Shown here piece after piece: positions 2,884 through 64,000 of a stretch of 64,000 nucleotides of DNA. Location of the stretch: IMG/VR virus record IMGVR_UViG_3300044837_000219, positions 5,005-69,004 of that record; one strand, 5' to 3'. Each line of letters opens with the position of its first letter. Position 1 is the first letter of the stretch. The DNA comes from a virus. The position numbers and the translations under genes are program-made. The notes under the pieces were generated by a model, which saw nothing but the letters and a program-made list of their open reading frames with translations, had not been told where the DNA came from and did not search any database.

Positions 2884-2928
2884 CTCGTGGTTGTCTTGAA
2901 AACGCTTCTCCCGGAAGGAAATCCAGTC

Positions 2929-3339
2929 ATGAGTCCCGCAGGCGAGCAGGCACCAGTCCAGCAGAAGTTGGAGGTCGAACTCCCCGCGAGCGCGACCGCC
3001 GTCAACAACTCGGGCGCCGTGCGCGCCCCGTTCGACGGAACCATCACCGACGTCTCCTACGTGCCGGTTGCGACCATCACCGGCGCCAACACCAACACCC
3101 GCGCCGTTTCCCTGGTCAACCACGCCCAGGACGGCACCGGTACCGCGATTGCGGCCACGCTGCAGTTCAACAGCGGCGTGAACGCCACCGGCTTCGACGA
3201 GAAGGCGATCACGCTCTCCGGTACTCCCGCGAACCTCGCGGTCGTCGCCGGAGACGTCCTGGAGGCCAAGTCGACAGCCGTCGGCACCGGCCTGGCCGAC
3301 CCGGGTGGCACGCTGTTCGTGACCATCGCGCGGGCCTGA
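2929..3339 (+). CDS. Putative capsid decoration / small virion protein
   Basis: Beta-rich Thr/Ala/Gly protein immediately after MCP; GAAGGA RBS before ATG 2929. Confidence 0.5.
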   Translation: MSPAGEQAPVQQKLEVELPASATAVNNSGAVRAPFDGTITDVSYVPVATITGANTNTRAVSLVNHAQDGTGTAIAATLQFNSGVNATGFDEKAITLSGTPANLAVVAGDVLEAKSTAVGTGLADPGGTLFVTIARA

Positions 3340-24580: not shown

Positions 24581-24772
24581 TCGCGACAGCCATCGCAGGC
24601 GCTTCCGGGGTCTACGGAGGAAGCGCAACCAGTATCGCAGGCCGTCGTCTCCCCGGCGAGGGGGCACGCCTCGCGGCTGGTGGCAGGGCGAGCGCCGACG
24701 GCTTCCAGATGGTCGTCGTGTGCTCCGTGGATGATTCGGACCGCTCGCGCTGCCGGAGCCAGCGTAGCGCGG

Positions 24773-24905
24773 AGGGGGCAGGGGGCGGACGGGGGCAGGC
24801 GTTTCCTCTTTACCCCTGTGTACGGATGCGTGGATTGGGGTTTGGACCTGCCCCCTGTGCCCCACTTCTGCCCCCAGGCTTGTTGATCTTCTTTAGGAGA
24901 TCAAC
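24773..24905. repeat. Iteron-like locus 1 (AGGGGGCA-type repeats facing inward) plus palindrome
   Basis: Three GGGGGC units then three GCCCC units, TTACCCCT, followed by GTTGATCTTCT-TT-AGGAGATCAAC. Confidence 0.6.
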
Positions 24906-25085
24906 TCCGAAAAGGATCAGTCACAGGATCGCTGCTGAGGGCTTTTGATCACACCCCTGGGGTGAGCGGCTTCAGACGGGGGGTCAGGCTGGGAAATCGG
25001 CGCCTGCGCCCGTTCTGGGCTGCTGAGACTGAGACGCCCGAGCCCCCGGCCCATCGGCAGGGTGACTCGGGCGTCTTGGACGTCT

Positions 25086-25367
25086 TCAGGCGGCTGCGTA
25101 CCGGCCACGACTGCGGGACCACGCGACGCGACCACTCTCCCGGCAGGGATCGCACCTGCAACCGAGATTCGTGTAGGCGTTGTCGGTTCCATGACGCGGA
25201 TCGTCAGGCGCGAGCCCACGACGGCGTGCATTCTCGCGATGACGTCTGCGCTGTGCGTTGGCCGCCTCGCGGCAGCAGCGGTCGCGACAACCGGCGCTAT
25301 AGCCGGTTGCGGAGCCGTGTCGCTCGTCGGTGGGCGTCATCGGCGGCTTCGAACGACGAACTGTCAT
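25086..25367 (-). CDS. Protein with duplicated HG..Y..GCRxxxC motif
   Basis: RHGSATGYSAGCRDRCCRE and RHGTDNAYTNLGCRCDPCRE. Confidence 0.65.
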   Translation of the reverse strand: MTVRRSKPPMTPTDERHGSATGYSAGCRDRCCREAANAQRRRHRENARRRGLAPDDPRHGTDNAYTNLGCRCDPCRESGRVAWSRSRGRYAAA

Positions 25368-25876
25368 CGCAACCCCTCTCCTGCGCGCATCGCCTCCAGG
25401 TGCCGGATGAAGTCCGGGTCGTGAACGTGGTCGAGGTAGCGCGGGTCCTTCCGCCCCGGGTGGTGCAGCAGCGCGTGCTCCTGAACCAGACCGGGCCAGT
25501 CTTCGTCGCCAGTGTCCAGCGCCTTGCCGTGCAGCAGCCAAGCGTGCGAGCGGAGTTCTCCGGGGTGGACGAAGTCGACCGGCACCCGGTAGGGCTCGTC
25601 GGGCGCTCGCTGGATGGCCTGCACCTTGCCGCCGAGCGACACTTGCGCCAGAGCGATGGCCTGGTCCATCGCTGCGCTCATCGAGAGCAGGACGTTCACG
25701 TCTCCGTCCGGCGGGCACTTCGCCGCCGGAATGACCTTGTGCTTGCCTTCGCGCTCGACCACGACCGCTCCGGCGTTCGGTCCGGTTTTCGGTCGCCCAG
25801 TGACCTTCCACGCAACGGGATCGACGCCTTTCGACTGGATGATGTCGCCGACGCCGACGTGGCGCCACTTGCCCAT
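25364..25876 (-). CDS. Hypothetical protein
   Basis: In-operon ORF (MGKWRHVGVGD...), ATGA overlap with next gene. Confidence 0.55.
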   Translation of the reverse strand: MGKWRHVGVGDIIQSKGVDPVAWKVTGRPKTGPNAGAVVVEREGKHKVIPAAKCPPDGDVNVLLSMSAAMDQAIALAQVSLGGKVQAIQRAPDEPYRVPVDFVHPGELRSHAWLLHGKALDTGDEDWPGLVQEHALLHHPGRKDPRYLDHVHDPDFIRHLEAMRAGEGLR

Positions 25877-25881
25877 CGCCA

Positions 25882-26100
25882 CTACTCGTCCTCCTCTTCC
25901 GACTTCTTGCGCCAGTCGCTCAACTTCGTGGCGATCGACGGCGATGTCTGGCCCTTGCCTACCCTGCCCATCACGAGCCGCACCACCTGCACGACGAAGA
26001 CGATGACGAGCAGCAGCATCACCATCAGCAGCATCCGGTTCGTCGGATCGCCTGCGGTGCACCATAGGCCGCCGTTCGCGATGCACTGGTCGTCTAGCAT
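25882..26100 (-). CDS. Small membrane protein
   Basis: Single hydrophobic helix MLLMVMLLLVIVFVVQVV. Confidence 0.55.
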   Translation of the reverse strand: MLDDQCIANGGLWCTAGDPTNRMLLMVMLLLVIVFVVQVVRLVMGRVGKGQTSPSIATKLSDWRKKSEEEDE

Positions 26101-26420
26101 CAGATGCTCCTCGGCTGCGGTCCGTGCAGCGCGTTCAGGATGCGGATGAAGTGTCGCGAACGGTTCATGGCCGATGCGATGTTCGCGGGGAGGTCTTGCA
26201 TCGCGTAGCCCTTGTTGCTGGTTGAAATGGCCTGCGCGTAGTCCAACCACACGTCGAACATGGTCTGGATCTGGTCGATGACTTCAGTGCTGACGGTGAT
26301 GCTCGGCTCCGTCGCCAGCACCGCGAGTGCACTCTCGATGCTGAAAATCGTCTCGTCGCGCAACTTCTCGGCAACCTTGAGGGCGGCCCCGCCTGCGGTG
26401 CCACCGATCGGTGTGGGCAT
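26100..26420 (-). CDS. Hypothetical protein
   Basis: AGGAG RBS; first gene of leftward operon. Confidence 0.6.
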   Translation of the reverse strand: MPTPIGGTAGGAALKVAEKLRDETIFSIESALAVLATEPSITVSTEVIDQIQTMFDVWLDYAQAISTSNKGYAMQDLPANIASAMNRSRHFIRILNALHGPQPRSI

Positions 26421-26731: not shown

Positions 26732-26839
26732 GGTGAAACCCTGTGTCTCAGTGATCCGGGCCAACCTCGGCCCGAACGCACATCACCCCTGGTCAGCGTG
26801 TCCGCGCTGCCAGGGGATCAGTGGGAGGTTCACTCGCGC

Positions 26840-29158
26840 ATGCAGTCTACCGTCGAAACACTGACGATCCCAGAGATCGCCGACGACGCCGACCTGATCT
26901 CCGCAGCCATCGCCTACGCGAACGCGGGCTTCTACATCGTGGCCGTCGAGCCGGACACGAAGAGGCCCGCCGCGTTCTACGGCAAGGGCTGGCCGCACAT
27001 GTCCAGCCGCGATCCGCAGGAGATCGCATACTGGTTCGCCGGATCCCCTTACCAACTCGCACTGCACATCGGCCGGTCGGGCGCCGTCGCGTTCGACGTG
27101 GACGAGCCCGACAAGATTCCGGCCATCCTCCAGCGGGCCTTCGACGAGTGCCGCCCGCCGTTTCAGAGCACACGCGAGACCGGCGGTCGAGGTCACCGCA
27201 TCTTCGCCGTACCGGAGGGTCGGCGACTCGGCAACTCGGTTGGCGGGCTCGGGCGCGGCTGGGGTGACGTCCGAGGCCGCAACGGCATCATCGTGGTCGA
27301 GCCGTCGTTCCACACGAAGCACAGCGACGGCGGACGCTACAAATGGCTGACGACCGGCGCGGTGCCGATGCTGCCCGACTACGTTGCCGAACTGCTGCCC
27401 GAGGCGGGCGTCGACACCGAAGCGGCCACCGACGCCGTCGTCCGGAAGTTCATGGACGAATACACCGACGAGCGGCGCGGTGCACTGCTGACGGCGGTGC
27501 TGAACAAGTTCTCCTCCGAACTGAAGGAGGGGTCGCGGCACGAAGCGCTGGTGCGTAATCTCGTGTGGGCGATGCGCGAATCACGGCTCGGCTGGTATCC
27601 GGCGCAGATGGCAGCGGACACCATGCAGTCGATGTTCTCGAATGCGATGGCGGGCGAGCGCCACCCGGTCCCAGAGTTCCAGGGCGCCCTCGCCTTCGCC
27701 GTGGCGCAGGCTCTGCTCATCGACCCTGACGAGCGCAGGGACGAAGCCTCGGCGCGCCTGAAGGCTCGGGACGCAGCGAAGAAGGCTGCGATCGGTGTGA
27801 CGTCGCAGGATGGCAGGGCTCGACCGAAGCAGCGACCCCGCGATCCGGGTGACTACTTCTACGACAAGAGCGCTGGCATTGACATGGAGATGCTTGTGCA
27901 GGACGTCTTCTCGGTCGGACCCATCGCGGTAGGTCCGAACCACGACTTCTGGACGTACGATGCCGGAGTGTGGCGTTCGAATCCGAAAGAGGTCGGCAAG
28001 CGGGTATGGAATCTCCTCGGTCCACGCTACCGGGGATCGCACGCCACCAACGCAGAACACGGCGTTCTTGCCGAAGCAATGGAGATTGCGGTCAATCCCG
28101 TTTCCGATTACATGAATTTCGCGAATGGCATGCTGGAGTGGCGTACCGGAGAGTTGCACGAACACAGCCCGCACTACGGCAGCACTGTGCAATTCCCGCT
28201 GGAGTGGAAGCCTGACGCACTCTGCCCGCAGTTCGATGACTTCCTTGCCACCATCTTCAGCGAAGACTACGTCGAACTGGCCTGGCAGATGCTCGGCTAC
28301 CTCATGTTCAGTGGCAATCCGCACCAGAAGGCATTCTTGTTCCTCGGCTCCGGTGCTAACGGCAAGGGCACGCTGATGCGCGTCATCGACGCCATGCTCG
28401 GCACCGAGAACTGTTCGAGCGAGTCCCTCGACGATCTGAACCAGAACAGGTTCGCCGCGTACAGTCTGTTCGGCAAGATTGCTAACCTGGCCGGTGACAT
28501 CGACGCGACGTACCAGACCAGCACCGCAGCGTTCAAGAAGTTGACCGGCGAAGACATGTACGCCGGTGAGCGCAAGTACGGCGACCGGTTTCTCTTCAAG
28601 GCATGGGCCGTCCCAGTCTTCTCCGCGAATAAGATTCCGGGCTCAGCCGACGCTTCCGAAGGCTACCTGCGGCGCTGGATCATCCTGAAGTTCGATCGCA
28701 CGTTTTCCGAGAAGGAGCGCATCCAGGGGCTGTCCGATCGACTCATCACTGAACTGCCCGGTATCGCCGTCAAGGCGATCCAGGCGCTCGCCGGAGTCAT
28801 CGACGGCCCCGGGTTCAAGTTGGACGGCGAGGTGGCGCAGGCGAAGGAGGAGTTCGCCGAAGCAATCGACCAGGTGCGCCAGTGGATGGGCGAATGCACC
28901 ATCACGGCACCGGGCTCGCAGGTTCCGCGTGCGAAAGCGTACGCGTCGTATAAGTTCTGGGCCGGAAGCAATGGGCATCGCGTGCTGTCGGCCAGCGAGT
29001 TGTACCAGCGCATGAACAGCGCATCGAAGAGTGGCAAGAAGATCGAGAAGAAGATTCGCGGCAACCGCGTGTTCGTCGACTTCGAAATCGTCGAGTTCAG
29101 CGTCAACACGTTCGCGCCGTCCAGCGACGTCCTGCCCGACGCCTTCGGAGATGAGTAA
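26840..29158 (+). CDS. Bifunctional primase-polymerase fused to D5/P4-family SF3 helicase
   Basis: Prim-pol VAFDVD, GRGHRIF, DVRGRNGIIV; helicase GSGANGKGT (Walker A), FKKLTGED, FSANKIP, GYLRRW. Confidence 0.92.
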   Translation: MQSTVETLTIPEIADDADLISAAIAYANAGFYIVAVEPDTKRPAAFYGKGWPHMSSRDPQEIAYWFAGSPYQLALHIGRSGAVAFDVDEPDKIPAILQRAFDECRPPFQSTRETGGRGHRIFAVPEGRRLGNSVGGLGRGWGDVRGRNGIIVVEPSFHTKHSDGGRYKWLTTGAVPMLPDYVAELLPEAGVDTEAATDAVVRKFMDEYTDERRGALLTAVLNKFSSELKEGSRHEALVRNLVWAMRESRLGWYPAQMAADTMQSMFSNAMAGERHPVPEFQGALAFAVAQALLIDPDERRDEASARLKARDAAKKAAIGVTSQDGRARPKQRPRDPGDYFYDKSAGIDMEMLVQDVFSVGPIAVGPNHDFWTYDAGVWRSNPKEVGKRVWNLLGPRYRGSHATNAEHGVLAEAMEIAVNPVSDYMNFANGMLEWRTGELHEHSPHYGSTVQFPLEWKPDALCPQFDDFLATIFSEDYVELAWQMLGYLMFSGNPHQKAFLFLGSGANGKGTLMRVIDAMLGTENCSSESLDDLNQNRFAAYSLFGKIANLAGDIDATYQTSTAAFKKLTGEDMYAGERKYGDRFLFKAWAVPVFSANKIPGSADASEGYLRRWIILKFDRTFSEKERIQGLSDRLITELPGIAVKAIQALAGVIDGPGFKLDGEVAQAKEEFAEAIDQVRQWMGECTITAPGSQVPRAKAYASYKFWAGSNGHRVLSASELYQRMNSASKSGKKIEKKIRGNRVFVDFEIVEFSVNTFAPSSDVLPDAFGDE

Positions 29159-29292: not shown

Positions 29293-29551
29293 GTGGAGGC
29301 ACAAGACGTTCGTCCCCGCCGTCATCGTGAAGCGATACGGCTGGGATCGCGTCCTGCGCGAGCGCTGCGCCGATGCTCTGTTCATGGCAGGCAAGGCGGG
29401 CATATTGACGCTCGACGAGCCGAAGAACACCACGGTGACATCATGGGTCATTGGTTCTGACGGTTCATACATCCCGCAGCCAGCGGACGGCACGGAGACG
29501 TTCTTCGGCATCGAGTTTACCTTCGATGTTGACATCCAGGCGGCGTCGTGA
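29285..29551 (+). CDS. Hypothetical protein
   Basis: In-operon ORF; stop is the TGA of the operator. Confidence 0.5.
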   Translation: MSEWRHKTFVPAVIVKRYGWDRVLRERCADALFMAGKAGILTLDEPKNTTVTSWVIGSDGSYIPQPADGTETFFGIEFTFDVDIQAAS

Positions 29552-29565
29552 GACAGTAGGTCTCA
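29529..29565 (+). promoter_or_regulatory. Promoter/operator, leaderless start
   Basis: TTGACA-N17-GACAGT; TGAGAC-AGTAG-GTCTCA whose last A is the A of ATG 29565. Confidence 0.75.
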
Positions 29566-38164: not shown

Positions 38165-38171
38165 CCCACGA

Positions 38172-38403
38172 GTTGCCCGGCGGGCGTGCTGGACGCCATT
38201 CAACGCCGGGCGGCCGAGCCGGAGCGGTCTGTAGCAGAGCCCGCCAGCAAGGGTGATGTACTCCGGCGCCACAGACTCGCTGGCCGGACAGCCAGAGCAG
38301 AACGTGCGCGACCTCCCTGGGCTGGTTGGGGGAGGTAAGTGATGAGTCGCGCGCGTCCCAGCGAGCACCGCCCACCGATCGCGTGGCCTGCGATCGGTGG
38401 GCG
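38172..38403 (+). ncRNA. Candidate structured RNA downstream of the RNA ligase gene
   Basis: Four consecutive helical domains read by eye in an ORF-poor gap, ending in a 14-bp terminator-like stem. Confidence 0.45.
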
Positions 38404-38469
38404 TTGTGGTGTTCGGGTTCGAAATCTGTCACTCTAGAACCCTTCTCAGGCAGGAAGAGGGTTCTCGTA

Positions 38470-38706
38470 ATGGATCACGTTGACCGGCTGATGCGCGGCA
38501 TGAGGTTCGCGTTCGGCATCTGGGCACCGCGCACCGCGTACGCCGTCGGCGTGCTGTGGTGGGCCACGGACTACTCGCCGTCGGTCGTAGTGCTGGGCTT
38601 CACCGTCGTGCCCGCTGTGCGACTGCTGCTCGACCAGCCACTCCTCGTTGCCGCTGAGACGGCGCAGGCTCACCGCTCCGGCCCGATCGGAGCCCGCCGT
38701 GACTGA
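38470..38706 (+). CDS. Small membrane protein upstream of the TraB-like gene
   Basis: Two hydrophobic segments; overlaps translocase start. Confidence 0.5.
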   Translation: MDHVDRLMRGMRFAFGIWAPRTAYAVGVLWWATDYSPSVVVLGFTVVPAVRLLLDQPLLVAAETAQAHRSGPIGARRD

Positions 38707-40738
38707 TTCCACCGACCCGTCCGACGAGGACGTCAGGCGACTGCTGGACGGCGCTTCAGCGCTTCTGGGCGGGCTCGACGAGGATGGAGACGGCGAGCCT
38801 GACGGTCTCGTCGAACCTGACGCCACAGCGGGGCAGGAAGCGCCGCTCCTGTTCGAGCGCTCGTCCATCGTCGGCGGGCCGAAGCGGAAGCGGCTGGACC
38901 GCCCCCAGCACCGCGTTGCGCGCGCCGGAGCCAAGGCCGTGTCGCCACAGACGATGGCGCGGCTGATGCGCGCCGAGGGGCGCGGCATGCTGCGTTTCTT
39001 CGACTGGTTGCACAACTACTACAACGCCAACGACAAGTTGGACTTGCGGCTGCGGAACCCGCGCGCGCACCACGAAATCCACGAGCAGCGCCGGAACCGT
39101 ACCTTCATCTCTGCCGGGACGCTGCTGCTGCTCGCGCTCCTCCTGTTCGCCAGTGCGGGCCTCGTGGGGCTGGCGGGGGCCGCCTTCGTCATCTTCGCTG
39201 CGTTCGCGCGCGCGGGGCGGGGCAAGGACCGCCTGCTGGACGCGGAGGCGGGCGACGACATCGGGATGGGAGAGACGCGCATCCAGCGCGCGGTCGCGCG
39301 CGCGGTGTTCGGTGTCGACCTGTCGAACGAGAAGTACCGGGACTGGTGGCGGAACATCATCGTCCGCGAGGGCTGGACGCAGGTCGTCGGATCCGACACC
39401 CGCACCATCCGGCTGGGCCTCCCGGCACCGCACAGCGCCGCCAAGGCGAAGGCCAAGGAGCGTGACATCGCCGCCGCGCTCGACTTGACAGAGCAGCAGG
39501 TGCGCATCATCGCCGACCCGCGACGGGAGAACGCGGGCGACTTCGATCTGATCGTCTACAACAGCAACCCGTGGGACATCCCCGCGACGTTCTCCCCGAT
39601 CGCGCTGGAACCGCGCCGGACCTGCATCTGGGATGGCATCGACTTCGGCATCGACATCGACCGTCAGCCGGTGCGACTGGACATCGTCGGCAAGAGCATG
39701 CTCATCGGCGGGCTGCCGGAGATGGGCAAGACCACGACGGCGCTCACCATCATGACGTCCGTGGTGCTCGATCCGTTCGTGCGCATCTGGGTGGCCGACG
39801 CCAAGGGCGTCGACACTGCACCGCTCATCCCGCTGGCGTACCGCTACATCGGTGCGTCGCAGGAAGAGATGGTGAAGATGCTGCAGGAGTTGATGGCTTG
39901 GGGTCGCCAGAAGTTGATGGCACTCAAGGAAGTCCGGCGCGTCAAGTTCGACCGCAGTCTGTGCGCGATGTACCAGCAGATTGATGCGAATCACCCGCTG
40001 GCGACGGTCGACGTCGTTTACATCGACGAGGCGCGGTTCTACACGAACGGCGCCGTCGACCTACAGTCGCGGCGCATCGTGTCGCTGCTGTCGCAGATCA
40101 TCGAGATGTTCCGCGCCGTCGGCATCATCGTCATCGTCGCCACGCAGCGCCCGTCAGTGAAGAACATTCCGTCGGAAATCCGGGACCTGCTGCGTATCCG
40201 GCTCGCGCACGCATGCACAACGCCTGCGATGAGCAACACCATCCTCGGCGAAGGCGCAGCAGGGCAGGGCTTCAGCGCCACGCAGTTCGACGAGGACCAG
40301 CCCGGCGTTTCGTGGCTGCGCGTCCTGAAGTCGTTCCGCCAGGTGCGACCGCATCTGACCCAGGACGAGCAGTTGGAAAAGGCGTGCGAGGAAGCCTGGC
40401 GGCAGCGCTCCGAGGTCGGAACAACGCCGGAGGCGATCGACGCCACCATGACGTCGGTGCCGACGCTGCTGCTGGACATCAAGGCCATCTGCGACGAGCG
40501 CGAGTGGAAGCGCGTCCCGACGAACGTCCTGCTGCCGCTGCTCGCGGCGCGCTCGCAGGAGTACGACGGAATGAGCGCCACCGAGTTGTCGTCGCGGATG
40601 GGCAACTCCGGCGTGACGCCTCGACCGATCGGTCCGTGGGACTTCGAGGAAGGCGAGCCCGGCAAGAACGTACGTGGTTACCGGCTGGAATGGATCGAGG
40701 CTGCGATCGAGCGGCACAAGAAGGAGACGGTGCAGTGA
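38699..40738 (+). CDS. FtsK/SpoIIIE DNA translocase, actinomycete conjugative TraB type
   Basis: TM helix pair, Walker A GLPEMGKT, VADAKG, Walker B VVYIDE, VATQRPS..IPSEIRD, SNTILG, C-terminal wHTH ending NVRGYRLEWI. Confidence 0.85.
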   Translation: MTDSTDPSDEDVRRLLDGASALLGGLDEDGDGEPDGLVEPDATAGQEAPLLFERSSIVGGPKRKRLDRPQHRVARAGAKAVSPQTMARLMRAEGRGMLRFFDWLHNYYNANDKLDLRLRNPRAHHEIHEQRRNRTFISAGTLLLLALLLFASAGLVGLAGAAFVIFAAFARAGRGKDRLLDAEAGDDIGMGETRIQRAVARAVFGVDLSNEKYRDWWRNIIVREGWTQVVGSDTRTIRLGLPAPHSAAKAKAKERDIAAALDLTEQQVRIIADPRRENAGDFDLIVYNSNPWDIPATFSPIALEPRRTCIWDGIDFGIDIDRQPVRLDIVGKSMLIGGLPEMGKTTTALTIMTSVVLDPFVRIWVADAKGVDTAPLIPLAYRYIGASQEEMVKMLQELMAWGRQKLMALKEVRRVKFDRSLCAMYQQIDANHPLATVDVVYIDEARFYTNGAVDLQSRRIVSLLSQIIEMFRAVGIIVIVATQRPSVKNIPSEIRDLLRIRLAHACTTPAMSNTILGEGAAGQGFSATQFDEDQPGVSWLRVLKSFRQVRPHLTQDEQLEKACEEAWRQRSEVGTTPEAIDATMTSVPTLLLDIKAICDEREWKRVPTNVLLPLLAARSQEYDGMSATELSSRMGNSGVTPRPIGPWDFEEGEPGKNVRGYRLEWIEAAIERHKKETVQ

Positions 40739-41052
40739 AGAAGACGCTCGATTTCTCCGACCGGCGCGACTGGGGACACGACATCACCTTCAGGGTTGAT
40801 GCGAACATCAACCCTTTCGTGGTCAAGGGAAGTCTGTGGCATACGCCCAGTCCCGGAATCGGTGATTGGCTCGTTCTGCGGCACGGCAGTGGCCGTCCGG
40901 TGCTCTACCAGTTCACGTCGGTGAAGAGGGTCACAGATCCGCAGGACATGACGCATTTCGAGGCTGAGTTCGTCCGACTCAGTCAGCGGCCCGATGTCGT
41001 TCCGGAGTGCTGCTGTGGATGCATCGAAGAGGCGGGAGTGCGTCATGGCTGA
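40735..41052 (+). CDS. Hypothetical protein
   Basis: AAGGAG RBS; GTGA overlap with translocase stop. Confidence 0.55.
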   Translation: MKKTLDFSDRRDWGHDITFRVDANINPFVVKGSLWHTPSPGIGDWLVLRHGSGRPVLYQFTSVKRVTDPQDMTHFEAEFVRLSQRPDVVPECCCGCIEEAGVRHG

Positions 41053-41554
41053 GGCAGTAGCGCCGATCATCGACATCGCGACCGGTCAGCGCATCGCAGC
41101 GCCCGCCGTGGCGAAGCCGCGTCGGATCTGCGAGGACGAGCGCGGCCGGTACATCATGGTGGACGGCCAGCGCATCCCGGTGCGCAACGGCTGGCGGCCG
41201 GGCGACCAGGACCCGTTGGAGGACTGGCAGACGGCGCGCGAGATCGCACAGGACATCGCGAACGGCGACGGCCTGCACATCGAGCCAGGTAAGTGGCTCG
41301 GCTCGCTCCTGACGGTGTCAACGTCCGTCGGCGGCTGGACGACGTACCGGTGCGCTCCGGAGCCGATGGTGGCCGCGTGGCTCGCTAGCCTCGGCGTGGT
41401 ATGGACACCCTGGTCGCTGTGGCTCACCTGGCACGCTGCGCCGCTGGGTGGCTTCCCAGCGCTCGCTGCGGCCATCTCCTTCGTCGGTGCACCGTTCCTG
41501 CTGTGGACGCGGTTCTGCATCAACCACACCGAACTCGGAAGGCCGCGTACGTGA
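41045..41554 (+). CDS. Membrane protein
   Basis: C-terminal hydrophobic helices; GGGAG RBS. Confidence 0.55.
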   Translation: MAEAVAPIIDIATGQRIAAPAVAKPRRICEDERGRYIMVDGQRIPVRNGWRPGDQDPLEDWQTAREIAQDIANGDGLHIEPGKWLGSLLTVSTSVGGWTTYRCAPEPMVAAWLASLGVVWTPWSLWLTWHAAPLGGFPALAAAISFVGAPFLLWTRFCINHTELGRPRT

Positions 41555-42030
41555 GGGGATCAACTCACAGGGAATGGGGCGCTGTAACAGGCGCCCTTAT
41601 CTCTGCCGCTGCAGGGAACGACCCGCTCAACGTCGCCGTGTGCTTCGGCATGGGCTACGCGTGCGCGTCGTTCCCTGACCGGATCGAAGCACCGCTACGT
41701 CTGCAGCACCGGGGCATCTCGCACGCCTGGGAGGTCTACGCAGCGCTGGCAGCGCTCGCCTGGTGGCTTCCGCCGGTCGTCGACTACCCGGTGTGGGGTT
41801 TCGCGCTGGCGTGCCTCTCCCACCTGACCGGCGACCTGATGTTCGGCAAGTCCGGCTACGGACGCGGTGCAGGCATACCGTGGTTGCTCGGCACCTGCCA
41901 CTGGGGGCCGAATCTCTTCAAGGTGAACAACTGGACCGAGAAGCACTTCCGATGGCTGCTCATCAAGGTGAGGCCGTACAGCCTCGCCGGTGCGTTCCTG
42001 TGGGCGTTAATCCACATGGTGGTGGCGTAA
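41551..42030 (+). CDS. Membrane-bound metal-dependent hydrolase (YdjM-like)
   Basis: GSTH, FPDRIE, HRGISH, LSHLTGD, GIPW motifs with TM helices. Confidence 0.75.
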   Translation: MRGSTHREWGAVTGALISAAAGNDPLNVAVCFGMGYACASFPDRIEAPLRLQHRGISHAWEVYAALAALAWWLPPVVDYPVWGFALACLSHLTGDLMFGKSGYGRGAGIPWLLGTCHWGPNLFKVNNWTEKHFRWLLIKVRPYSLAGAFLWALIHMVVA

Positions 42031-42233
42031 TGTCGCATGAGCAGAAGACCGCATACAACGACCTTCTCACTTCACACATCCGACGCATCCAGAGCCTGCA
42101 TCCTGAACTGACGTCATTCAGTGCGACGGTTCGCTATCTGGTGACGCTAGGACTTGCTGCTGAGTACGCTCGCGATGCTGCAGCGACGCCGAACCCCTAC
42201 CTGTACCCATCGAAGGAGTTGACGGATCCATGA
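42030..42233 (+). CDS. Small, possibly RHH-like protein
   Basis: SFSATVRYLVTLGL helix pattern; TAATG overlap. Confidence 0.45.
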   Translation: MSHEQKTAYNDLLTSHIRRIQSLHPELTSFSATVRYLVTLGLAAEYARDAAATPNPYLYPSKELTDP

Positions 42234-42394
42234 CGTATGACATCATCCCCCAGGCGGCCCTGAGCGCGCCTGAGACGCGTGAGGCGCTTCCGCCGGTGCT
42301 CTGCATCCACTGCGGCAACGAGGTGCCCATGTGCGACCGGCAAGCGTCCGGCGCGTCGCACCCCATCTGCAGGAAGAAGCAGAAACGCTCATGA
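42230..42394 (+). CDS. Small Cys/His protein
   Basis: Hand translation MTYDIIPQ...LCIHCG...HPIC; AAGGAG RBS. Confidence 0.45.
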   Translation: MTYDIIPQAALSAPETREALPPVLCIHCGNEVPMCDRQASGASHPICRKKQKRS

Positions 42395-42612
42395 GCAGCG
42401 GCGGCGAAGTACGCTCAATTCTGCTCCATGTCGTTGTCGCCGATGCTGAGCACTGGACGACGGGGCAGCAGGTTGCTGCCATCCATTGCGACCTGCCGGA
42501 TTGTCTTTCTACCGCAGATCACGCCATGCACCATCTGGAGGCGCACCTACGTCAGCAGGGCGAAGAGTTCATCGCGACGTACCATCAGATGTTCGCTTCA
42601 GACCTGCTCTGA
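42391..42612 (+). CDS. Hypothetical protein
   Basis: ATGA overlap; last ORF before terminator. Confidence 0.45.
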   Translation: MSSGGEVRSILLHVVVADAEHWTTGQQVAAIHCDLPDCLSTADHAMHHLEAHLRQQGEEFIATYHQMFASDLL

Positions 42613-42617
42613 ATGCA

Positions 42618-42664
42618 GAAGGCCCGGACCCAGGATGCTGCTGGCATCCTGGGTCCGGGCCTTC
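42618..42664. terminator. Bidirectional hairpin between convergent operons
   Basis: Perfect 21-bp stem GAAGGCCCGGACCCAGGATGC / GCATCCTGGGTCCGGGCCTTC. Confidence 0.75.
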
Positions 42665-42842
42665 GTGTTGCGCGTCCAACCACACCGTGAGAGTTGAACG
42701 CTGCGCAGGTGCGGCTCGCTCGCCGTGCTGGGCGTTGCGTGATGTCGCGGCTACAGCCACTTCACCGGGCGAGGTCGTGGCCGCCCTTCCCCTCGACGCG
42801 CCCTGCGTCGGAGATTGAGGCGGGGTTGACGCCCTCAGGTGA

Positions 42843-43130
42843 TTACTTACAGAGTGCGCTGCCCTCGGCGACAGTGATAGCAGCGTAGGACGAAGTTCCG
42901 TGGTATGTGGTAATGATCGCTGCTCCGTTGATGCACTTCACGGCCAGGTTGCTGAAACCGTCCGGCATGTTCACGATGAAGGCCGACCCGTCGGCAACGC
43001 CGTTGTTAAACTTGCTCTTGTCGATTGGCGCGTCATTCCACGGCTGACTGCCGCTGTCGGTCGGGTCGCACGCAGACAGCGTGAAAACCAGCCCGATGAC
43101 GCCTGCAGCGATGAGGAGGCCCCTCTTCAT
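42843..43130 (-). CDS. Lipoprotein
   Basis: MKRGLLIAAGVIGLVFTLSA-C lipobox. Confidence 0.7.
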   Translation of the reverse strand: MKRGLLIAAGVIGLVFTLSACDPTDSGSQPWNDAPIDKSKFNNGVADGSAFIVNMPDGFSNLAVKCINGAAIITTYHGTSSYAAITVAEGSALCK

Positions 43131-43193
43131 TTTCGATCTCCGTCCTGTAGGCGAGGTGGGCGGCGGCACCTTCTCCGAGCGCCGCCGCCGCAC

Positions 43194-43601
43194 TCACTCG
43201 GCGTCTTGCTTGATCTGCGGGAAGATCGAGGACAACTTGGACATGCGATCGAAGAACCCGTTCGGATCCCAGTCGCTGCGCCGGTTGATGCATCCGGCGG
43301 CCTGCTTGATGAGTTCCCACGCCTTCTTGCGCGCATCCTTGCCTTCCTCGCCTTCGATGATTACGTCTACGTTCCGTACCCGGTCGATGTTGATGACCGT
43401 AGCCTTCTCCATTGGTGAATACGAAGTCGGCGTGACGTAGACGCAACCTCCACGTATCTCCCGGACGAGCCCCTGCGTCTCCGTTGTGCGGAGTCGGGAG
43501 TTTATCCAGAGAATGTGGACGAAGTTGCCTCGTGACAGCGCCCAGGGAACCAGTTTCGGGCTGGGTTCCTCGGGCGCCGCCTCGGGGGCAACATCAGTCA
43601 C
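43194..43601 (-). CDS. Hypothetical protein
   Basis: In-operon ORF. Confidence 0.55.
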   Translation of the reverse strand: MTDVAPEAAPEEPSPKLVPWALSRGNFVHILWINSRLRTTETQGLVREIRGGCVYVTPTSYSPMEKATVINIDRVRNVDVIIEGEEGKDARKKAWELIKQAAGCINRRSDWDPNGFFDRMSKLSSIFPQIKQDAE

Positions 43602-44532
43602 TTACCACCCGGAGAGCACCGCGCACGATGCCCCGGACGGTGGAGACCTTCAGGGTGATGCGCGCCGGGTTGTCCGGCGTGCCGTCGTGCGGGTACTTCT
43701 CGCGGAGCACCCGGGCGACGCCCTTGACGAGACGCTGCTCGTCGTGAGTGAAGGTCTTGCGCGGCCCCTGCGGCACGCTTGCGGTCTCGACCTCTGCCTG
43801 GTCGAGACGCGTCTGCAGGTCGCCTACGCGGGTGGAGAGGCGCTCGCGCTCCTGCGCGGCCAGTTCGAGCGCCGAGCGTGCGTTGTCCCGCTCGGCGCGC
43901 ACGGCGCTCAGTTCGTTCAGCGCGCCGTCGCGCTCGCCTTCAGCGTGCGCGGCGTGGTTGACCGCGCCGCTGAGCGCTTCGACCGCGTCGTTGCGCTCCG
44001 TCGCGAACTTCTGCGCCGATTCGAGCACCTGGTCGCGCTCGGTCTGCAGCCGGGCCACGAGTTCGTTCGCCTCGTAGACCTCGACCTTCAGTCGCGCTGC
44101 TTCTGCCACGGTCTGGCGCAACTTCTCCTGGACTGCCTCCACCTCCTCCCGCGATGTGTCCTTCGTCTTGGTTCCGAACACGCTGGCCTCCTTCTGCTTG
44201 GGCTGCACGATCCTGGCGTCCGCCGGGACGTGGTTCGGGTGGACGTACACCACGCGGTCGCCGCGCTTCTTCAGCAGGCGGACGATGATGCCGTCCTTAT
44301 GCATGCGCGACGTCGCGCCGGACGTCGGGCTGTCGTAGGCGTCGGGGTCGAAGTTCTTCTTCAGGTACTCCACGATCTCGCGGTTCGTCGAACCGGCCTG
44401 ACCGGACGTCTCCAGGCAACGCATGATGTGCTGCTGCATGGCGTCGTTGTGCGCGGTGCTGCGCTTGTTCGGGACCTTCGTCGTCCGCGTCGGCGCGAAC
44501 TCGTCGGCGTCGTCAATCTCTTGGGTTGTCAT
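43594..44532 (-). CDS. wHTH + long coiled-coil protein
   Basis: GSTNREIVEYL...SGATSRMHKDGIIVRL then heptad repeats; AAGGAG RBS. Confidence 0.65.
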   Translation of the reverse strand: MTTQEIDDADEFAPTRTTKVPNKRSTAHNDAMQQHIMRCLETSGQAGSTNREIVEYLKKNFDPDAYDSPTSGATSRMHKDGIIVRLLKKRGDRVVYVHPNHVPADARIVQPKQKEASVFGTKTKDTSREEVEAVQEKLRQTVAEAARLKVEVYEANELVARLQTERDQVLESAQKFATERNDAVEALSGAVNHAAHAEGERDGALNELSAVRAERDNARSALELAAQERERLSTRVGDLQTRLDQAEVETASVPQGPRKTFTHDEQRLVKGVARVLREKYPHDGTPDNPARITLKVSTVRGIVRGALRVVSD

Positions 44533-44556
44533 CGTTGGCGCTCCTTCGGGCTCCTG

Positions 44557-44593
44557 TGAGACTCATCGTCTCAATAAGTGGTCTCTCTGTCAA
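44557..44593 (-). promoter_or_regulatory. Promoter/operator
   Basis: Minus TTGACA; TGAGAC-TCATC-GTCTCA. Confidence 0.7.
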
Positions 44594-44600
44594 GTCGTGC

Positions 44601-44891
44601 TCAGGCGTTGACGTGCAGACTTCCGACGCCGTCCAGTTCGAAGACGGTCTCTCTGCCGCCGCTGTCGGCGTGCTGGCGCGCGATGTCGGCTGCGTACTCC
44701 GGCTTCATCCCGTACTGCACGAGGCAAGCCATCACGCGCAGGATCTTCGTCTCCTTCGCGTTGAACTCCAGCGCAACGCCGCCCTGCGGCAAGGTGCCGC
44801 CCTCGGGCACGATGTAGCCACGCGTCGTCCAGTGGTGCACCTGTCGATACGAGACGCCCAGTTGCTGCGCCAGATCAATGCCTCGCGCCAT
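44601..44891 (-). CDS. MerR-like HTH protein
   Basis: LAQQLGVSYRQVHHWTTRGYIVP. Confidence 0.75.
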   Translation of the reverse strand: MARGIDLAQQLGVSYRQVHHWTTRGYIVPEGGTLPQGGVALEFNAKETKILRVMACLVQYGMKPEYAADIARQHADSGGRETVFELDGVGSLHVNA

Positions 44892-45565
44892 CAGACCTCC
44901 TCTGCAATGCGGAAGATTCCGCGCGGCTGCCGCTCATCTTCGACGAGCGTGACGTACTCGTGCAGCCCGACGTGCCGCGCGTACGCCGCCGTTCCGGGCT
45001 CGCACAGTACAGCAACCCGGAAGGCACCTCCGTACTCCGCTTCGGACAGGCCACGCATCAGGAGGGGGATGAGCACGCTCTGCACGCGCATCGGGTGCTC
45101 CGAAAACTTCCATTTGATCGCCGGATACTTCGTCAGTTGCCACGGGATGCCGGTCAATCCAGGCACCGCGTCAGGCCAGCCCTTGACCCTCGCCGTGGCG
45201 AAGACCTGCACTGAGAACGTCCAGGTGATCTCATCGCCGGTATCGACGACGTGGCGCTCCTTGCGGAGTTCCTCGACGATCCGATGCTCCATTTCTTCCT
45301 GGACGTCGCGCAGCAGTTCCGGATCGACGTTCTGAACGATCCAGGAGGCTTCGACCGGAAGGCCCGCCCCCAGCATTGCGCGCGATCCGAAGAAGTTCGC
45401 CATCAGGGTCCGCGCGCGCTCGGTAGTGTCCATGACGACCGAAGGCTCGTCGCCGCCGAGCCACCGCGATTTCGTCGGCTTCATGTAGCGGAAGTAGAAA
45501 AGTTTCATCCCGTTCTGCAGCGGGCGGTACGAGCGCGGCAGGTTATCCCTGCGGTGCCGAGTCAC
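44891..45565 (-). CDS. Hypothetical protein
   Basis: In-operon ORF. Confidence 0.5.
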   Translation of the reverse strand: MTRHRRDNLPRSYRPLQNGMKLFYFRYMKPTKSRWLGGDEPSVVMDTTERARTLMANFFGSRAMLGAGLPVEASWIVQNVDPELLRDVQEEMEHRIVEELRKERHVVDTGDEITWTFSVQVFATARVKGWPDAVPGLTGIPWQLTKYPAIKWKFSEHPMRVQSVLIPLLMRGLSEAEYGGAFRVAVLCEPGTAAYARHVGLHEYVTLVEDERQPRGIFRIAEEV

Positions 45566-45621
45566 AGGTAGTCGTCCTCTCCGGCGGACTTGAACAATGC
45601 GTCGATCTCAGCGGCGACTTC

Positions 45622-45870
45622 TTAGGCGTCTCGCTTCGCGGTATCGACGATTCCCTTGCCCATCGGTGTGAGCGCGATGCGCCAGATGTCAACGATGGTG
45701 GTCCGAGTACGCAACGTGTTGTGCGACTTGAACGGCTCCATCGTGACGCAACCCTTGCGTTCGAGCGGCCGGTACACGCTCTCCCTCTCGCCGGGCACCA
45801 GCAGGTATCCGGCCTCGCCGACGAGCGTGAGTCGATCCCTCTCGCGATTGCCGATGCGAATGCGCACCAT
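45622..45870 (-). CDS. Hypothetical protein (wHTH-like end)
   Basis: LERKGCV...IALTPMGK. Confidence 0.45.
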   Translation of the reverse strand: MVRIRIGNRERDRLTLVGEAGYLLVPGERESVYRPLERKGCVTMEPFKSHNTLRTRTTIVDIWRIALTPMGKGIVDTAKRDA

Positions 45871-46229
45871 CACATGCCCGCCTGTTCCGCTCGCTTGACG
45901 ATGTTCGCGAGGTGGACGAAGAATCGAGCCATCGACGTGCCCGTGTTACCGGTGAGGTGCTCGACGTTGCCGAGCGCCGTCAGCGCGACGTCGAGGTTCT
46001 CCTTGATGAGTTCCACCGTCTGGTCGCTCTGCGGCTTGCGCGGGTTCTGGCCGGTGTGCGCGATCATCTTGGTGATGACCTCGCCCGCCTCTTCCGTCAA
46101 CTTCGACATCCGGCCCCAGGTGACCGCCTCGGGATCCCTGTGTTCGTTCGCACCGTCGAACCAGTCGCTCAAGCGCTTGATGTCGGCGCCCATCACATAG
46201 AGAAGTTCGTTCGGACCTGAAGACTGCAC
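45870..46229 (-). CDS. MazG-like nucleotide pyrophosphohydrolase
   Basis: KLTEEAGEV...GQNPRK...KENLDV; AGGAG RBS. Confidence 0.8.
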   Translation of the reverse strand: MQSSGPNELLYVMGADIKRLSDWFDGANEHRDPEAVTWGRMSKLTEEAGEVITKMIAHTGQNPRKPQSDQTVELIKENLDVALTALGNVEHLTGNTGTSMARFFVHLANIVKRAEQAGM

Positions 46230-46273
46230 GGAGTGCTCCTATCTCGGTGGGATTCCTTGCCGCAGGTGATGCC

Positions 46274-46394
46274 TGGTGGGCCTGGTGGATTCGAACCACC
46301 TCAGCGTCTTGCGACCTTTTACCGTGCCCGCGTCCGAGCGGCCCTCGCGGGCACCGAGAAGGTCGGAGTCTGCGTCGCGACCAACCCGGTGCCC
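46274..46394 (-). ncRNA. tRNA-like RNA (non-canonical, 121 nt, CCA end)
   Basis: 5' GGGC...GGTGG-TTCGAAT-CCACC-AGGCCC-A-CCA 3'; own promoter immediately upstream; no normal anticodon arm. Confidence 0.65.
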
Positions 46395-46396
46395 TA

Positions 46397-46434
46397 TGAG
46401 ACGTATAGTCTCACGCGCCTTACATGCCTGTCAA
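46397..46434 (-). promoter_or_regulatory. Promoter/operator for tRNA-like RNA and MazG operon
   Basis: Minus TTGACA; TGAGAC-GTATA-GTCTCA. Confidence 0.75.
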
Positions 46435-46838
46435 GACTCCTTCTTGATCCCGGGGATCCGCAGGAAGACCTGTCCGCGCTCCTGGGCGAGATGGCAGAAG
46501 CCGCCCTCGATGATGCCCATCTTCATGAGCAGTTCGAGTAGTTGGGACACATCCTCCCACGCGAAGCGGCCGGGGATGACGAGATGTGAATGGCCGGGCG
46601 TGGCGCTCGGGATGACCCGGAGGGCGTGGCGGTCGATATCCAGCATCAGAATGTGCAGGTTGAGCCCGGGGGACTCGTCGCTGATTCTGATGACCTCGCT
46701 GCCGTACGCGTTCGCCGCCGGATCCTCGAAGTGGACCCGCCTGCGATCGTTGCCCTCTTCGTAATCTGCATCGAAGTCAATCGCCCACGCCTCGACTCCC
46801 GTGCTGCGAATGAAGTCGATGTCTTCGTCTTTCGACAT
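46431..46838 (-). CDS. Hypothetical protein
   Basis: AAGGGAG RBS; LDID..PS.TPGH.HL motif. Confidence 0.6.
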   Translation of the reverse strand: MSKDEDIDFIRSTGVEAWAIDFDADYEEGNDRRRVHFEDPAANAYGSEVIRISDESPGLNLHILMLDIDRHALRVIPSATPGHSHLVIPGRFAWEDVSQLLELLMKMGIIEGGFCHLAQERGQVFLRIPGIKKES

Positions 46839-47791: not shown

Positions 47792-48955
47792 AGAAGGTGC
47801 AGGACTTGTCGAAGGGCGACAAGACGCCCTGGTACGAGGTGGCACACAAGCCGCTTGCGGCGATCGTCTCTCCGGGCAAGAACGTCGTTCTCGTGCGCGT
47901 CATCTACAACGATGGTGGCGATGGCATCCGCGAGTTCGACTATGACCAGGACATCGAGGTGAACGATGGGTAGCGGGCTCGGCTGGCCGGAGTGCGTGTG
48001 CAACGTCGGCTGCCAGGAGTGCGGACTGCACCCCGGCCGCGTGCTGACGAAGGAGCAGAGCATCGCGTTCCGGAAGAAGTGGGATGCGGAGGTGGACCGT
48101 GCGTCAGAGCGAGCCTCGCGCGGAGACTGAGGAAATCACCGAGTGCGAGGCGTGCGGGGACCTGATTCCGCTCTGCCGTTGCCCGGGACGGTGCGGCGGC
48201 TGTCTGCAGTGGCGCGAGAAGTGCGTCTGTCGCAGTGCACGGCGTCGGCGCGGCATGAATCAGAAGAATGAATGGCAGTGCTTCGAGTGCGAGCATCAAC
48301 TGGAGTACTGCATGTGCAGCAACCGAGTCTTCGAGAACCTCGCCCGAGGTCTCATCGGCATCAAGGACCCGAAGAAGCGCAAGCAGGCGCACAAGGCGCT
48401 CGTCGCGCTCGTCATCAAGTGGAACATCATCGAACATGAGGGGCAGTTGTGAGAGATAACGTCGAGCGTCCGTTGCGCGAGACGGAGATAACTATTCCGG
48501 CGACGCACGAGGTGTACGTCGCCCAGGTGGCGACGACTGGTCGGTTCCGTGAGGACCGCTGGCCGAACATCGAAGCGGACATCGAGATGCGCGTTCGGCG
48601 TCGGCGTAACCCGGCGCGACGACGCGACCCGGAGGAGTTGATTCGTGCGGAGTCGCTGCCGCTGTCGTTGGCGTACGCGCTGGCGCTCGCGGTGGCGGCT
48701 CCAGTCGAGATTCCGATCAGCGCCATCCGCAACGTTGATTGGCGTGTCACCAAAATCAGCATCTACAACGACAGTTTCGACGGGCTCTGCGTCGAACTTA
48801 CCTTCGAGTCAACTGCAGCGGTTCTGAGCACCGAAGCGAAGATTTACTGGCACATCAAGGACTGGACGGCGCCGCTCTGGTTCGCCGACGCCATCCGTGA
48901 CTTCGTCGGGCCGATGTTCTCGCGGCGGGGGTTGACAGACGTGTCATCCACATGA
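47782..48955 (+). other. Run of small hypothetical genes (47782-47973, 47966-48130, Cys-rich ORF(s) to 48452, 48449-48955)
   Basis: Tightly overlapping ORFs with RBSs; starts uncertain. Confidence 0.45.
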
Positions 48956-48969
48956 GACAGTAGGTCTCA
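48932..48969 (+). promoter_or_regulatory. Promoter/operator, leaderless start
   Basis: TTGACA; TGAGAC-AGTAG-GTCTCA ending in the A of ATG 48969. Confidence 0.75.
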
Positions 48970-55028: not shown

Positions 55029-55064
55029 GACAGCGATGTAACGTCTATGAGACACTAGGTCTCA
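55027..55064 (+). promoter_or_regulatory. Promoter/operator
   Basis: TTGACA; TGAGAC-ACTAG-GTCTCA. Confidence 0.75.
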
Positions 55065-59860: not shown

Positions 59861-60088
59861 AGGGGGCAGGGAAGGGGGCAGGGGGCAGATTTTGGGGGTC
59901 CTAAACCCTTACCCCTGCGTACGTACGGGGACTTGTACGTATCTACTGCCTCTATCTGCCCCCTCTTCATGCGCGCGTTAGAAGGGGGCAGTAGGGGGCT
60001 AGAGAGTTACGTAAGTCCCCGTGACGCGTTAGGGGTAAGGGTTTGAGACCCCCAAAACCTGCCCCCCTGCCCCCCTTTCCTGCCCCCT
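59861..60088. repeat. Large imperfect palindrome with AGGGGGCA iterons; probable replication origin
   Basis: Arms AGGGGGCAGGGAAGGGGGCAGGGGGCAGATTTTGGGGGTC..AAACCCTTACCCCT..CGGGGACTT mirrored on the right. Confidence 0.7.

Positions 60089-63784: not shown

Positions 63785-64000
<216 letters not shown>

Follow-up and report, generated by a model that had tools for sequence, protein, structure and literature searches.

What does a TraB-type DNA pump, a kind of protein known from plasmids and from the integrative, conjugative elements of actinomycetes (AICEs), do in the genome of a tailed phage? This question is raised by a 64,000-nucleotide stretch of viral DNA (hereafter, the window), which covers bases 5005-69004 of the 69,004-bp IMG/VR virus record IMGVR_UViG_3300044837_000219 and carries on its + strand, at 38699-40738, a gene for a TraB-family translocase of double-stranded DNA (dsDNA), 679 amino acids (aa) long and called the pump below. 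Membrane pumps of this kind serve Streptomyces plasmids to drive dsDNA from one hypha into another. The plasmid-borne TraB protein translocates dsDNA after binding the 8-bp repeats of clt (PMC4447253). The evidence considered here suggests that the phage gene very probably represents a phage-lineage TraB subfamily, inherited vertically in a group of soil actinophages, and not a recently captured plasmid cassette. An initial annotation of the locus had described it as a plasmid-type TraB conjugation module embedded in a phage genome; its observations were largely right and its family assignment was right, but the idea of an embedded plasmid module turned out to be wrong.

Placement of the pump in the TraB family

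In a BLASTP comparison, the pump aligns with the TraB protein of pSG5 from the membrane anchor to the C-terminus (residues 150-670 of 679) at 28.9% identity (E 1.6e-42) and with that of pSVH1 at E 1.5e-38. The multiple alignment with both plasmid proteins is collinear throughout, and in the C-terminal domain invariant residues are shared. A tblastn search against 72,556 plasmids matched 43 records, 39 of them from Streptomyces, with pSG5 found at E 1e-30 and pSVH1 at E 4e-27; the TraB proteins of these two plasmids are the ones that have been characterised.

The initial annotation had assigned the protein to the TraB type rather than to chromosomal FtsK or to EccC of type VII secretion, and the phylogeny upholds this assignment. 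The maximum-likelihood tree was built from 48 motor domains: 13 of the phage family, 16 of TraB (from plasmids and genomes), three of chromosomal FtsK, ten of EccC, four of other FtsK-like proteins, one of an FtsK-like protein of a cluster J mycobacteriophage and one of a distant viral protein. The phage family is monophyletic (support 98/100) and forms one clade with the 16 TraB motors (97/94), as the sister group of TraB of the pSG5/pSVH1 type; chromosomal FtsK clusters with the cluster J protein (99/95), and the EccC domains are placed elsewhere on the tree. Against this placement stand the sampling, TraB being represented by the pSG5/pSVH1 type only and the FtsK and EccC references coming from three genomes, and the long stem of the phage family (1.49 changes per column), the tree tool warning of long-branch joins.

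The C-terminal domain points in the same direction. Compared by hhalign with the C-termini of TraB proteins, it gives a probability of 93% (E 3e-7, 71 columns) vs 0.06% with FtsK-gamma; judged from this profile comparison, it is homologous to the DNA-recognition domain of TraB. In the AlphaFold model, residues 590-679 take the order helix-strand-helix-helix-strand-strand-helix with a predicted local distance difference test score (pLDDT) above 80, the pattern of a winged helix; this predicted winged helix lies at about 40430-40735.

The weight of these findings is best seen against the alternative that nothing more than a chromosomal-type FtsK/SpoIIIE, or else an EccC-like ATPase of type VII secretion, is at hand, as in the "FtsK-like DNA translocases" annotated in actinophages. 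Several general searches agree with it: Pfam FtsK_SpoIIIE matches the pump weakly, below its cut-off (E 2.2e-4), PHROG 1358 ("FtsK/SpoIIIE-like") matches at E 2e-29, and the FtsK motor is the best solved structure by fold. That the single motor is of the FtsK/SpoIIIE type is seen from Foldseek values of 4e-11 for FtsK and 9e-11 for TcpA and from a profile search of the PDB, which finds FtsK at 7e-7. However, the tree sets the pump apart from FtsK, the cluster J protein and EccC; FtsK-gamma is missing; and a single motor in 679 aa is unlike EccC/EssC, in which two or three ATPase domains stand in tandem over some 1,300 aa and for which Foldseek gives only about 1e-6. Moreover, tblastn with the pump against 50,697 phage records returned one weak match, whereas the Streptomyces FtsK matched 409 phage records. 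The NCBIfam FtsK model gives the pump 17.8 bits, as compared with 369 bits for the cluster J protein. The NCBIfam model NF041214 (plasmid_TraB) was tried as a membership test and rejected: the pump scores 42.7 bits against a cut-off of 800, but the control, pSG5 TraB itself, scores just 32.8 bits. Hence, this score cannot decide membership, because the model does not cover TraB of the pSG5 type.

The 679-aa form starts at GTG 38699 and is that of the public gene call (P0001); an alternative TTG at 38648 would give 696 aa. A hydrophobic anchor of 35 residues (39104-39208, residues 136-170, hydropathy peak 2.44) is followed by Walker A, GGLPEMGKTT (39707-39736, residues 337-346), Walker B, VVYIDEA (40007-40033, residues 437-445), and the motif ATQRPS (40139-40156, residues 481-486). 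Thus, the size, the Walker motifs, ATQRPS and the C-terminal winged helix of the initial annotation are all found, while its pair of transmembrane (TM) segments gives way to one long hydrophobic stretch, which may span the membrane once or twice, is drawn by AlphaFold as a single helix and, in the multiple alignment, coincides with the predicted hydrophobic stretch of pSG5 and pSVH1 TraB. All 13 members of the family have Walker A, Walker B and ATQxP without variation, and since no catalytic motif has been lost among these relatives, the protein is read as active; it is taken to be a membrane-anchored, sequence-directed dsDNA pump, as far as its motifs and predicted fold permit.

Twelve metagenomic relatives are 49-81% identical to the pump, and a profile search of 1.84 billion representative sequences found 2,537 proteins at E <=0.001, of which 130 reach E <=1e-30; they grade continuously into TraB of the plasmid type. 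In cellular genomes, all 38 related loci are only 28-34% identical; 33 of them belong to Streptomyces, and the rest to Kitasatospora, Actinacidiphila, Nocardiopsis and one metagenome-assembled actinobacterial genome. In a sample of 401 Actinomycetes genomes, matches at E <=1e-30 were seen in eight, none of them closer than plasmid TraB. Locus searches with the pump protein or its profile yielded only a viral locus of 23% identity (L004) and a 2.4-kb metagenome fragment (L005), with nothing close in genomes; scans with the proteins P0013 and P0143 found nothing, and the scan with P0287 led back to a locus (L075) on the related phage contig described below. Other long contigs that carry relatives of the pump measure 48,778, 60,680, 29,685 and 24,696 bp. 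On fragment L005, which is lower in G+C, a 38%-identical relative at 1310-2455 is preceded by a 116-aa protein with a single TM segment (967-1317), whose stop overlaps the start of the pump by 8 nt, just as the gene before the pump does in the window; the two small proteins are dissimilar.

Inheritance of the pump gene and its genomic setting

The record itself is that of a tailed phage, as the initial annotation held: PHROGs names genes for the large terminase, portal, head protease, major capsid protein, a tape measure protein of 1,291 aa, further tail proteins and an endolysin. The non-structural genes named in the same way include a Prim-Pol/D5 primase-helicase, an exonuclease, a dCMP deaminase, an endonuclease VII and an RNA ligase. 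As the terminase does not exceed 53% identity with its counterparts in cultured phages of Arthrobacter, Streptomyces and Gordonia, the record is regarded as a new actinophage; DNA near-identical to it was found in none of the GenBank phages.

The strongest evidence on the history of the gene comes from a second phage. One relative of the pump (P0139) lies on a 41,659-bp IMG/VR contig, G004, which is collinear with the phage of the window and matches 30 of the 99 open reading frames (ORFs) called on the record by third-position G+C. The identities amount to 61-65% for the terminase, 55% for the portal, 75% for the capsid, 57% for the endolysin and 58% for endonuclease VII, and tail genes, the exonuclease and the deaminase are also matched. 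The TraB-like gene of G004 (561 aa, 42% identity) occupies the corresponding position, with endonuclease VII on one side and the leftward gene block on the other, and is directly followed by a hairpin and a convergent gene; none of the seven genes which accompany the pump in the window (g1 and g3-g8, see below) is found in G004. Because the second phage has the pump at the same place without these genes, the pump is regarded as an inherited gene of the phage group, and the other operon genes as variable additions; for the same reason, the "embedded" of the initial annotation is not borne out in the sense of a recent event. Two further peculiarities of G004 (L075-L078) deserve mention: its terminase match falls into three separate pieces with gaps and its portal match contains one in-frame TAG, interruptions which could be inserted elements (an intein or a homing endonuclease) or sequencing errors, and it carries three tandem paralogues of the window gene at 2887-3339.

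A plasmid origin of the whole set of genes was sought in the neighbours as well. Compared by BLASTP with 23 proteins of pSG5 and pSVH1, the seven neighbours gave no credible match, the lowest value (E 0.003) being that of g5 with a part of TraB itself; compared by tblastn with the 43 TraB loci, plasmid or chromosomal, they gave none at E <=0.01, the best high-scoring segment pair having E 0.058. Homologues of the spread proteins SpdB2, Spd79 and SpdB3, which lie beside traB in the Streptomyces conjugation system, are therefore lacking among the seven neighbours in these searches, although neighbours analogous to Spd proteins are still conceivable, since Spd proteins diverge fast. Nor did the Pfam scan, which covered 87 of the record's ORFs, reveal a GntR-type TraR/Kor regulator of the kind that pSG5 and pSVH1 each carry. 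With no neighbour matched around 43 TraB loci, no adjoining repeat array and no such regulator, the description as a plasmid module had to be given up.

These observations also bear on the possibility that the pump is a passenger or an artefact, i.e., an inert plasmid or AICE remnant, or a chimeric assembly of a phage and a conjugative element. The record is, after all, derived from a metagenome; strong hairpins stand on either side of the operon, in which the operator common elsewhere in the phage is missing; its G+C content (0.66-0.67 at 38-42 kb) is slightly above the record average of about 0.64; and in soil metagenomes no read or contig could be shown to bridge either junction. Pieces of the region are present, in small shares, in two soil metagenome runs, but the contigs of these runs are short and none spans an operon junction; apparent joints in them were given no weight, as they appear in single low-depth contigs of 85% likeness. 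On the other side, the independent and collinear contig G004 has the gene at the same place, a synteny which makes an inert passenger unlikely, and no catalytic motif is missing from any of the 13 family members, which are 49-81% identical. The low identity of the nearest cellular and plasmid TraB proteins (28-34% in 38 of 38 loci) argues against a recent donor, and no plasmid replication, integration or Spd gene lies beside the pump. The G+C content at third codon positions of the pump gene, 0.88, is similar to that of its neighbours, and in a second soil metagenome there are stretches which match the pump gene, as well as the flank on either side, at about 97% identity.

In the window, eight ORFs of the + strand fill 38470-42612, and their chosen starts overlap the preceding stops by 1-11 nt, as in a translationally coupled operon. 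The first, g1 (38470-38706), encodes a small hydrophobic protein of 78 aa with a hydropathy peak at residues 36-54; between the stop of g1 and the GTG of the pump there is an overlap of 8 nt. Downstream of the pump follow g3 (40735-41052), a soluble protein of 105 aa matched by nothing except PHROG 8812, a family without an assigned function (E 3.7e-7), and g4 (41042-41554), of 170 aa, whose C-terminal third is hydrophobic. The only relative of g4 is P0017 (43% identity), located on a 4,685-bp contig, equal in length to the one that carries the pump relative P0002 (81%); a search of the ESM Atlas with g4 gave no usable match. The hydrophobic segments of g1 and g4 bear out the small membrane proteins that the initial annotation placed beside the pump. 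Its YdjM-like membrane hydrolase, g5 (41551-42030, 159 aa from a GTG overlapping the g4 stop), is a weaker case than was claimed, with Pfam YdjM matching at E 2.5e-6 and 27.6 bits against a curated cut-off of 29 and nothing in the other libraries. For g6 (42030-42233, 67 aa) the supposed ribbon-helix-helix likeness found no support, this protein, like g1, having no family match in Pfam, PHROGs, NCBIfam or PADLOC. The last two genes, g7 (42230-42394, 54 aa) and g8 (42391-42612, 73 aa), are likewise without a family match; g7 could be a zinc ribbon, judging from the spacing of its four cysteines (C-x2-C-x7-C-x11-C). All these genes lie on the + strand.

Both strong hairpins reported around the operon were recovered, and they are far stabler than shuffled sequence. 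The upstream one (38369-38403), a self-complementary G+C-rich stem of 15 bp, has a folding energy of -34.6 kcal/mol (z -4.8, none of 200 shuffles equally stable) and lies 205 nt past the RNA-ligase gene and 66 nt ahead of the first ATG of the operon. The downstream one (42618-42664) has a perfect 22-bp stem between the convergent + strand operon and leftward block, with -52.1 kcal/mol on the + and -50.3 on the - strand (z -8.9 and -10.1, none of 200 shuffles as good), and is taken for a putative terminator acting in both directions; at the same position in G004 there is a hairpin too, but its sequence differs. The labels "operon" and "terminator" for the 38369-42664 region are to be understood as putative ones, derived from the sequence. 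A sigma-70 promoter scan, weak for actinobacteria as a consensus scan, found nothing ahead of the operon. A short imperfect inverted repeat (GAACCCTTCT ... AGAGGGTTC, 38436-38465) spans the purine-rich ribosome-binding stretch before the g1 ATG; it could be an operon-specific operator or an element of translational control.

The initial annotation had further stated that the operon lacks a TGAGAC operator, and this is correct once the operator is defined more sharply. By itself, the hexamer shows no enrichment (44 copies vs 44.5 expected), but the 17-bp palindrome TGAGAC-N5-GTCTCA occurs in 25 copies at <=2 mismatches, ten of them exact, vs 3.7 expected. All but two of the copies belong to the non-structural part of the genome, from 23.9 kb onward (23912-63362, e.g., 29549-29565, 44557-44573, 48953-48969 and 55048-55064), and the palindrome is probably an operator or promoter element of a phage regulator. 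As no copy lies between 37119 and 44557, the pump operon is considered to be without this operator. G004 has, instead, six copies of a palindrome built on GTCTAGGCCTAGAC.

Facing the pump operon is a leftward block on the - strand (42843-46838), bracketed by palindromic operators, which includes genes for a protein of 116 aa (42843-43193), whose start resembles a signal peptide and which has an LSAC motif like a lipobox, for a coiled-coil protein of 312 aa (43594-44532) and for a MerR-type helix-turn-helix protein of 96 aa (44601-44891), all three on the - strand. A role of this block in immunity or exclusion is conceivable, despite the lack of an integrase among the ORFs scanned. The integrase, which the initial annotation had not seen in the window, is also missing from the 5 kb of the record outside it: among the scanned ORFs of the 69-kb record, neither Pfam nor PHROGs revealed an integrase, ParA/ParB or an obvious repressor. 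The record is estimated by CheckV to be 96% complete and no terminal repeats were found in it; at this completeness, a genome end may be missing. Its last stretch (63947-64000) is a tandem repeat, (GTGC)n, with 12 units or more, and since the contig probably broke at this simple repeat, the right end is perhaps not the true end of the genome. The replication protein (26798-29158) is a fusion of Prim-Pol with a D5-type helicase, an arrangement listed among the AICE replication modules by Ghinet et al. 2011 (PMC3218068) and also common in actinophages.

Possible roles of the pump

The reading favoured here, albeit tentatively, is that the pump carries the dsDNA of the phage through septa, or from hypha to hypha, in a mycelial host. 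Starting from the sequence, the fold, the membership of the TraB clade and the synteny in the second phage, one can draw a model of the hexamer, its DNA site, the direction, the substrate and the role, which would run as follows. The pump would be made from its own terminator-bounded operon, without the common 17-bp palindromic operator, would insert into the membrane by its 35-residue hydrophobic segment and would form a hexameric channel like that of TraB. The C-terminal winged helix would recognize a short repeated DNA word, and replicating phage dsDNA would be pumped at the expense of ATP across the septum or envelope of the mycelial host, so that one infection could reach neighboring hyphal compartments or hyphae without virions. 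The g1 and g4 proteins might help in this particular phage but are not conserved parts of the system. Such a virion-independent spread of DNA across septa is plausible as a hypothesis.

Candidate docking sites were sought by a k-mer cluster scan, which in a control recovered four exact GACCCGGA words directly after traB of pSVH1, the known clt type (PMC4447253). In the record, the word GGGGGCAG is the second most enriched 8-mer, with 17 copies vs 2.2 expected across the 69 kb, and 12 of the 17 fall in two intergenic arrays. The larger array (59861-60088), in a 570-bp intergenic gap, contains eight exact words, four on each strand, and forms a large imperfect inverted repeat of roughly 230 bp; the smaller one (24764-24875), upstream of the gene at 24962-26149, has two words on each strand. 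Both share one architecture, with direct GGGGGCAG, a common TTACCCCTG-GTACG core and inverted CTGCCCCC. These arrays may be the docking sites of the pump and may equally be replication origins or operators and other regulatory sites. The hairpin at 42618-42664 was considered as a clt-like site and rejected, because the hairpin at the same place in G004 has an unrelated sequence.

Rather doubtful, at present, is the fuller proposal that a lytic lineage of tailed soil actinophages keeps its own TraB pump as a second, capsid-independent route for naked dsDNA, which docks on the GGGGGCAG arrays. That the lineage may be lytic is suggested by its want of recognizable integrase and partition genes. 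As to the host, the nearest named homologues of the portal and one relative of the pump come from Micromonospora, Actinoplanes and a Micromonosporaceae genome, all of them mycelial taxa.

A number of points weigh against transfer across septa. If the host were not mycelial, the septal-spread model would lose its rationale, and here the clues are few: the record contains no tRNA genes, and a search of 401 Actinomycetes genomes revealed no close prophage copy. The k-mer scan that succeeded with pSVH1 detected no clt-like repeat array within or beside 38165-42842; the GGGGGCAG arrays lie 14-21 kb from the pump gene and in their build resemble origins or operators; and in G004 (41.7 kb) no such array was found, but four scattered single copies of the word. 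Genomic context was seen for one of the 12 close relatives. A lytic phage may, moreover, gain little from moving naked DNA. To these points should be added the missing Spd homologues and GntR-type regulator and, as regards helper genes, the absence of the neighbours from G004, all described above.

Among the other roles, the one that survives best, though it is on the whole unlikely, is that of a septal pump for segregation, which would move DNA or clear it away at the septa of sporulation or division and by which phage genomes would be brought into prespores and carried in spores, or by which chromosome segregation and development of the host would be manipulated. In Bacillus, phage DNA is entrapped in spores through SpoIIIE. 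The same machinery of membrane anchor, motor and winged helix would serve this purpose, and for a phage in which no integrase or partition gene was found another way of persistence would be useful; ftsK-like genes of Streptomyces phages are listed as candidate developmental manipulators (PMC10117723, PMC13587820). However, the protein is of the TraB type, and the copies of host FtsK known from phages (cluster J) belong to another clade. The C-terminal domain is unlike FtsK-gamma, hence recognition of a word resembling the host FtsK-orienting polar sequences (KOPS) is not expected.

Less probable again is a conflict system, which would exclude or expel superinfecting phages, conjugative plasmids or AICEs, or would belong to a phage-borne defence or anti-defence set of which the small membrane proteins and the YdjM-like hydrolase are further members. 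The PADLOC model mad8 does match the ATPase core (E 1.4e-11), yet the match spans only the generic motor (residues 316-516), the other seven operon proteins match no PADLOC model, and the full-length collinearity is with TraB. The operon appears to be separately regulated, with none of the 25 palindromic operators near it, and relatives differ in the accessory genes g3-g8, a variability often met in conflict genes; the pump, in contrast, is kept at one locus while its neighbours vary, which is the ground for arguing that it acts without them. An inert passenger or a chimeric assembly, in view of the synteny with G004, is very improbable, and the chromosomal-type FtsK or EccC-like ATPase is hardly credible on the tree presented above.

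Comparison with known systems

In mycelial actinomycetes a virion infects one hyphal compartment, and the crossing of cross-walls is a question both for phage ecology and for contamination of antibiotic fermentations. If transfer across septa is the true role, a TraB pump owned by the phage would offer a direct and testable mechanism for passing the cross-walls, and the line between conjugation and infection, so far shown to be blurred only for one plasmid-prophage, would be blurred here as well: "conjugative" spread would be a normal part of the lytic cycle and not just a property of plasmid-prophages like pZL12. Should the role be segregation or exclusion, the family would still represent a compact sequence-directed DNA motor with a new recognition word. 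In the open full-text literature searched, no description was found of a TraB of the pSG5/pSVH1 type in a tailed phage without plasmid functions; further sources drawn upon are PMC4487206, PMC7157519, PMC4569894 and PMC12282955.

The idea of virion-free phage spread is itself not wholly new and extends two published statements. One concerns the Streptomyces plasmid-phage pZL12/phage ZL12 (GQ919031; Zhong et al. 2010), the functional precedent for a phage that also conjugates: here, too, a Tra protein of the FtsK/SpoIIIE type (pZL12.71c, 725 aa) is encoded by the genome of a tailed phage, and its conjugal transfer requires a tra gene (cited in PMC3583192). Unlike the present record, in which none of these functions was found, it is a 90-kb plasmid-prophage with ParA/ParB and an integrase according to its GenBank annotation, and its Tra has no detectable similarity to the pump (BLASTP E 0.54; a profile search of the pZL12 record found nothing). 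The other concerns the SpdB2 homologues of phiC31 and VWB, which were proposed by Thoma et al. 2015 (PMC4447253) to help spread phage DNA. These, too, are genes of the plasmid-spread type on actinophages, but there Spd membrane proteins occur without a pump, whereas here a pump occurs without recognizable Spd proteins.

For annotation, two unrelated things called "FtsK-like" in actinophages can now be separated, namely, motors copied from the FtsK of the host and pumps of the TraB type, which have a DNA-recognition domain of their own. The "FtsK-like DNA translocases" of cultured phages (Schatzie, Baka and Courthouse of cluster J, and Bacillus phages) resemble the pump in being phage-borne members of the FtsK/SpoIIIE superfamily; they are, however, copied from the motor of chromosomal FtsK, and those of cluster J share 49-52% identity with the Streptomyces FtsK motor, the Schatzie protein being 442 aa long. 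The pSG5 TraB reaches the cluster J phages only at E 3e-5, and the pump has no match to them at E <=1e-5.

The TraB proteins of pSG5 and pSVH1 differ from the pump in being borne by plasmids or AICEs, the phage pump standing on a long separate branch with a shorter N-terminal cytoplasmic part; in place of the plasmid system with its GntR-type TraR, SpdB2, Spd79, SpdB3 and adjoining repeats, the phage operon has no homologues of these proteins and no such array. What the phage and plasmid pumps have in common is a similar size (679 vs 738 and 772 aa), collinearity, with 29-32% identity (E 1e-38 to 1e-42), through the anchor, the motor and the C-terminal domain, the sister position on the motor tree and a C-terminal recognition domain which, by profile comparison, is homologous.

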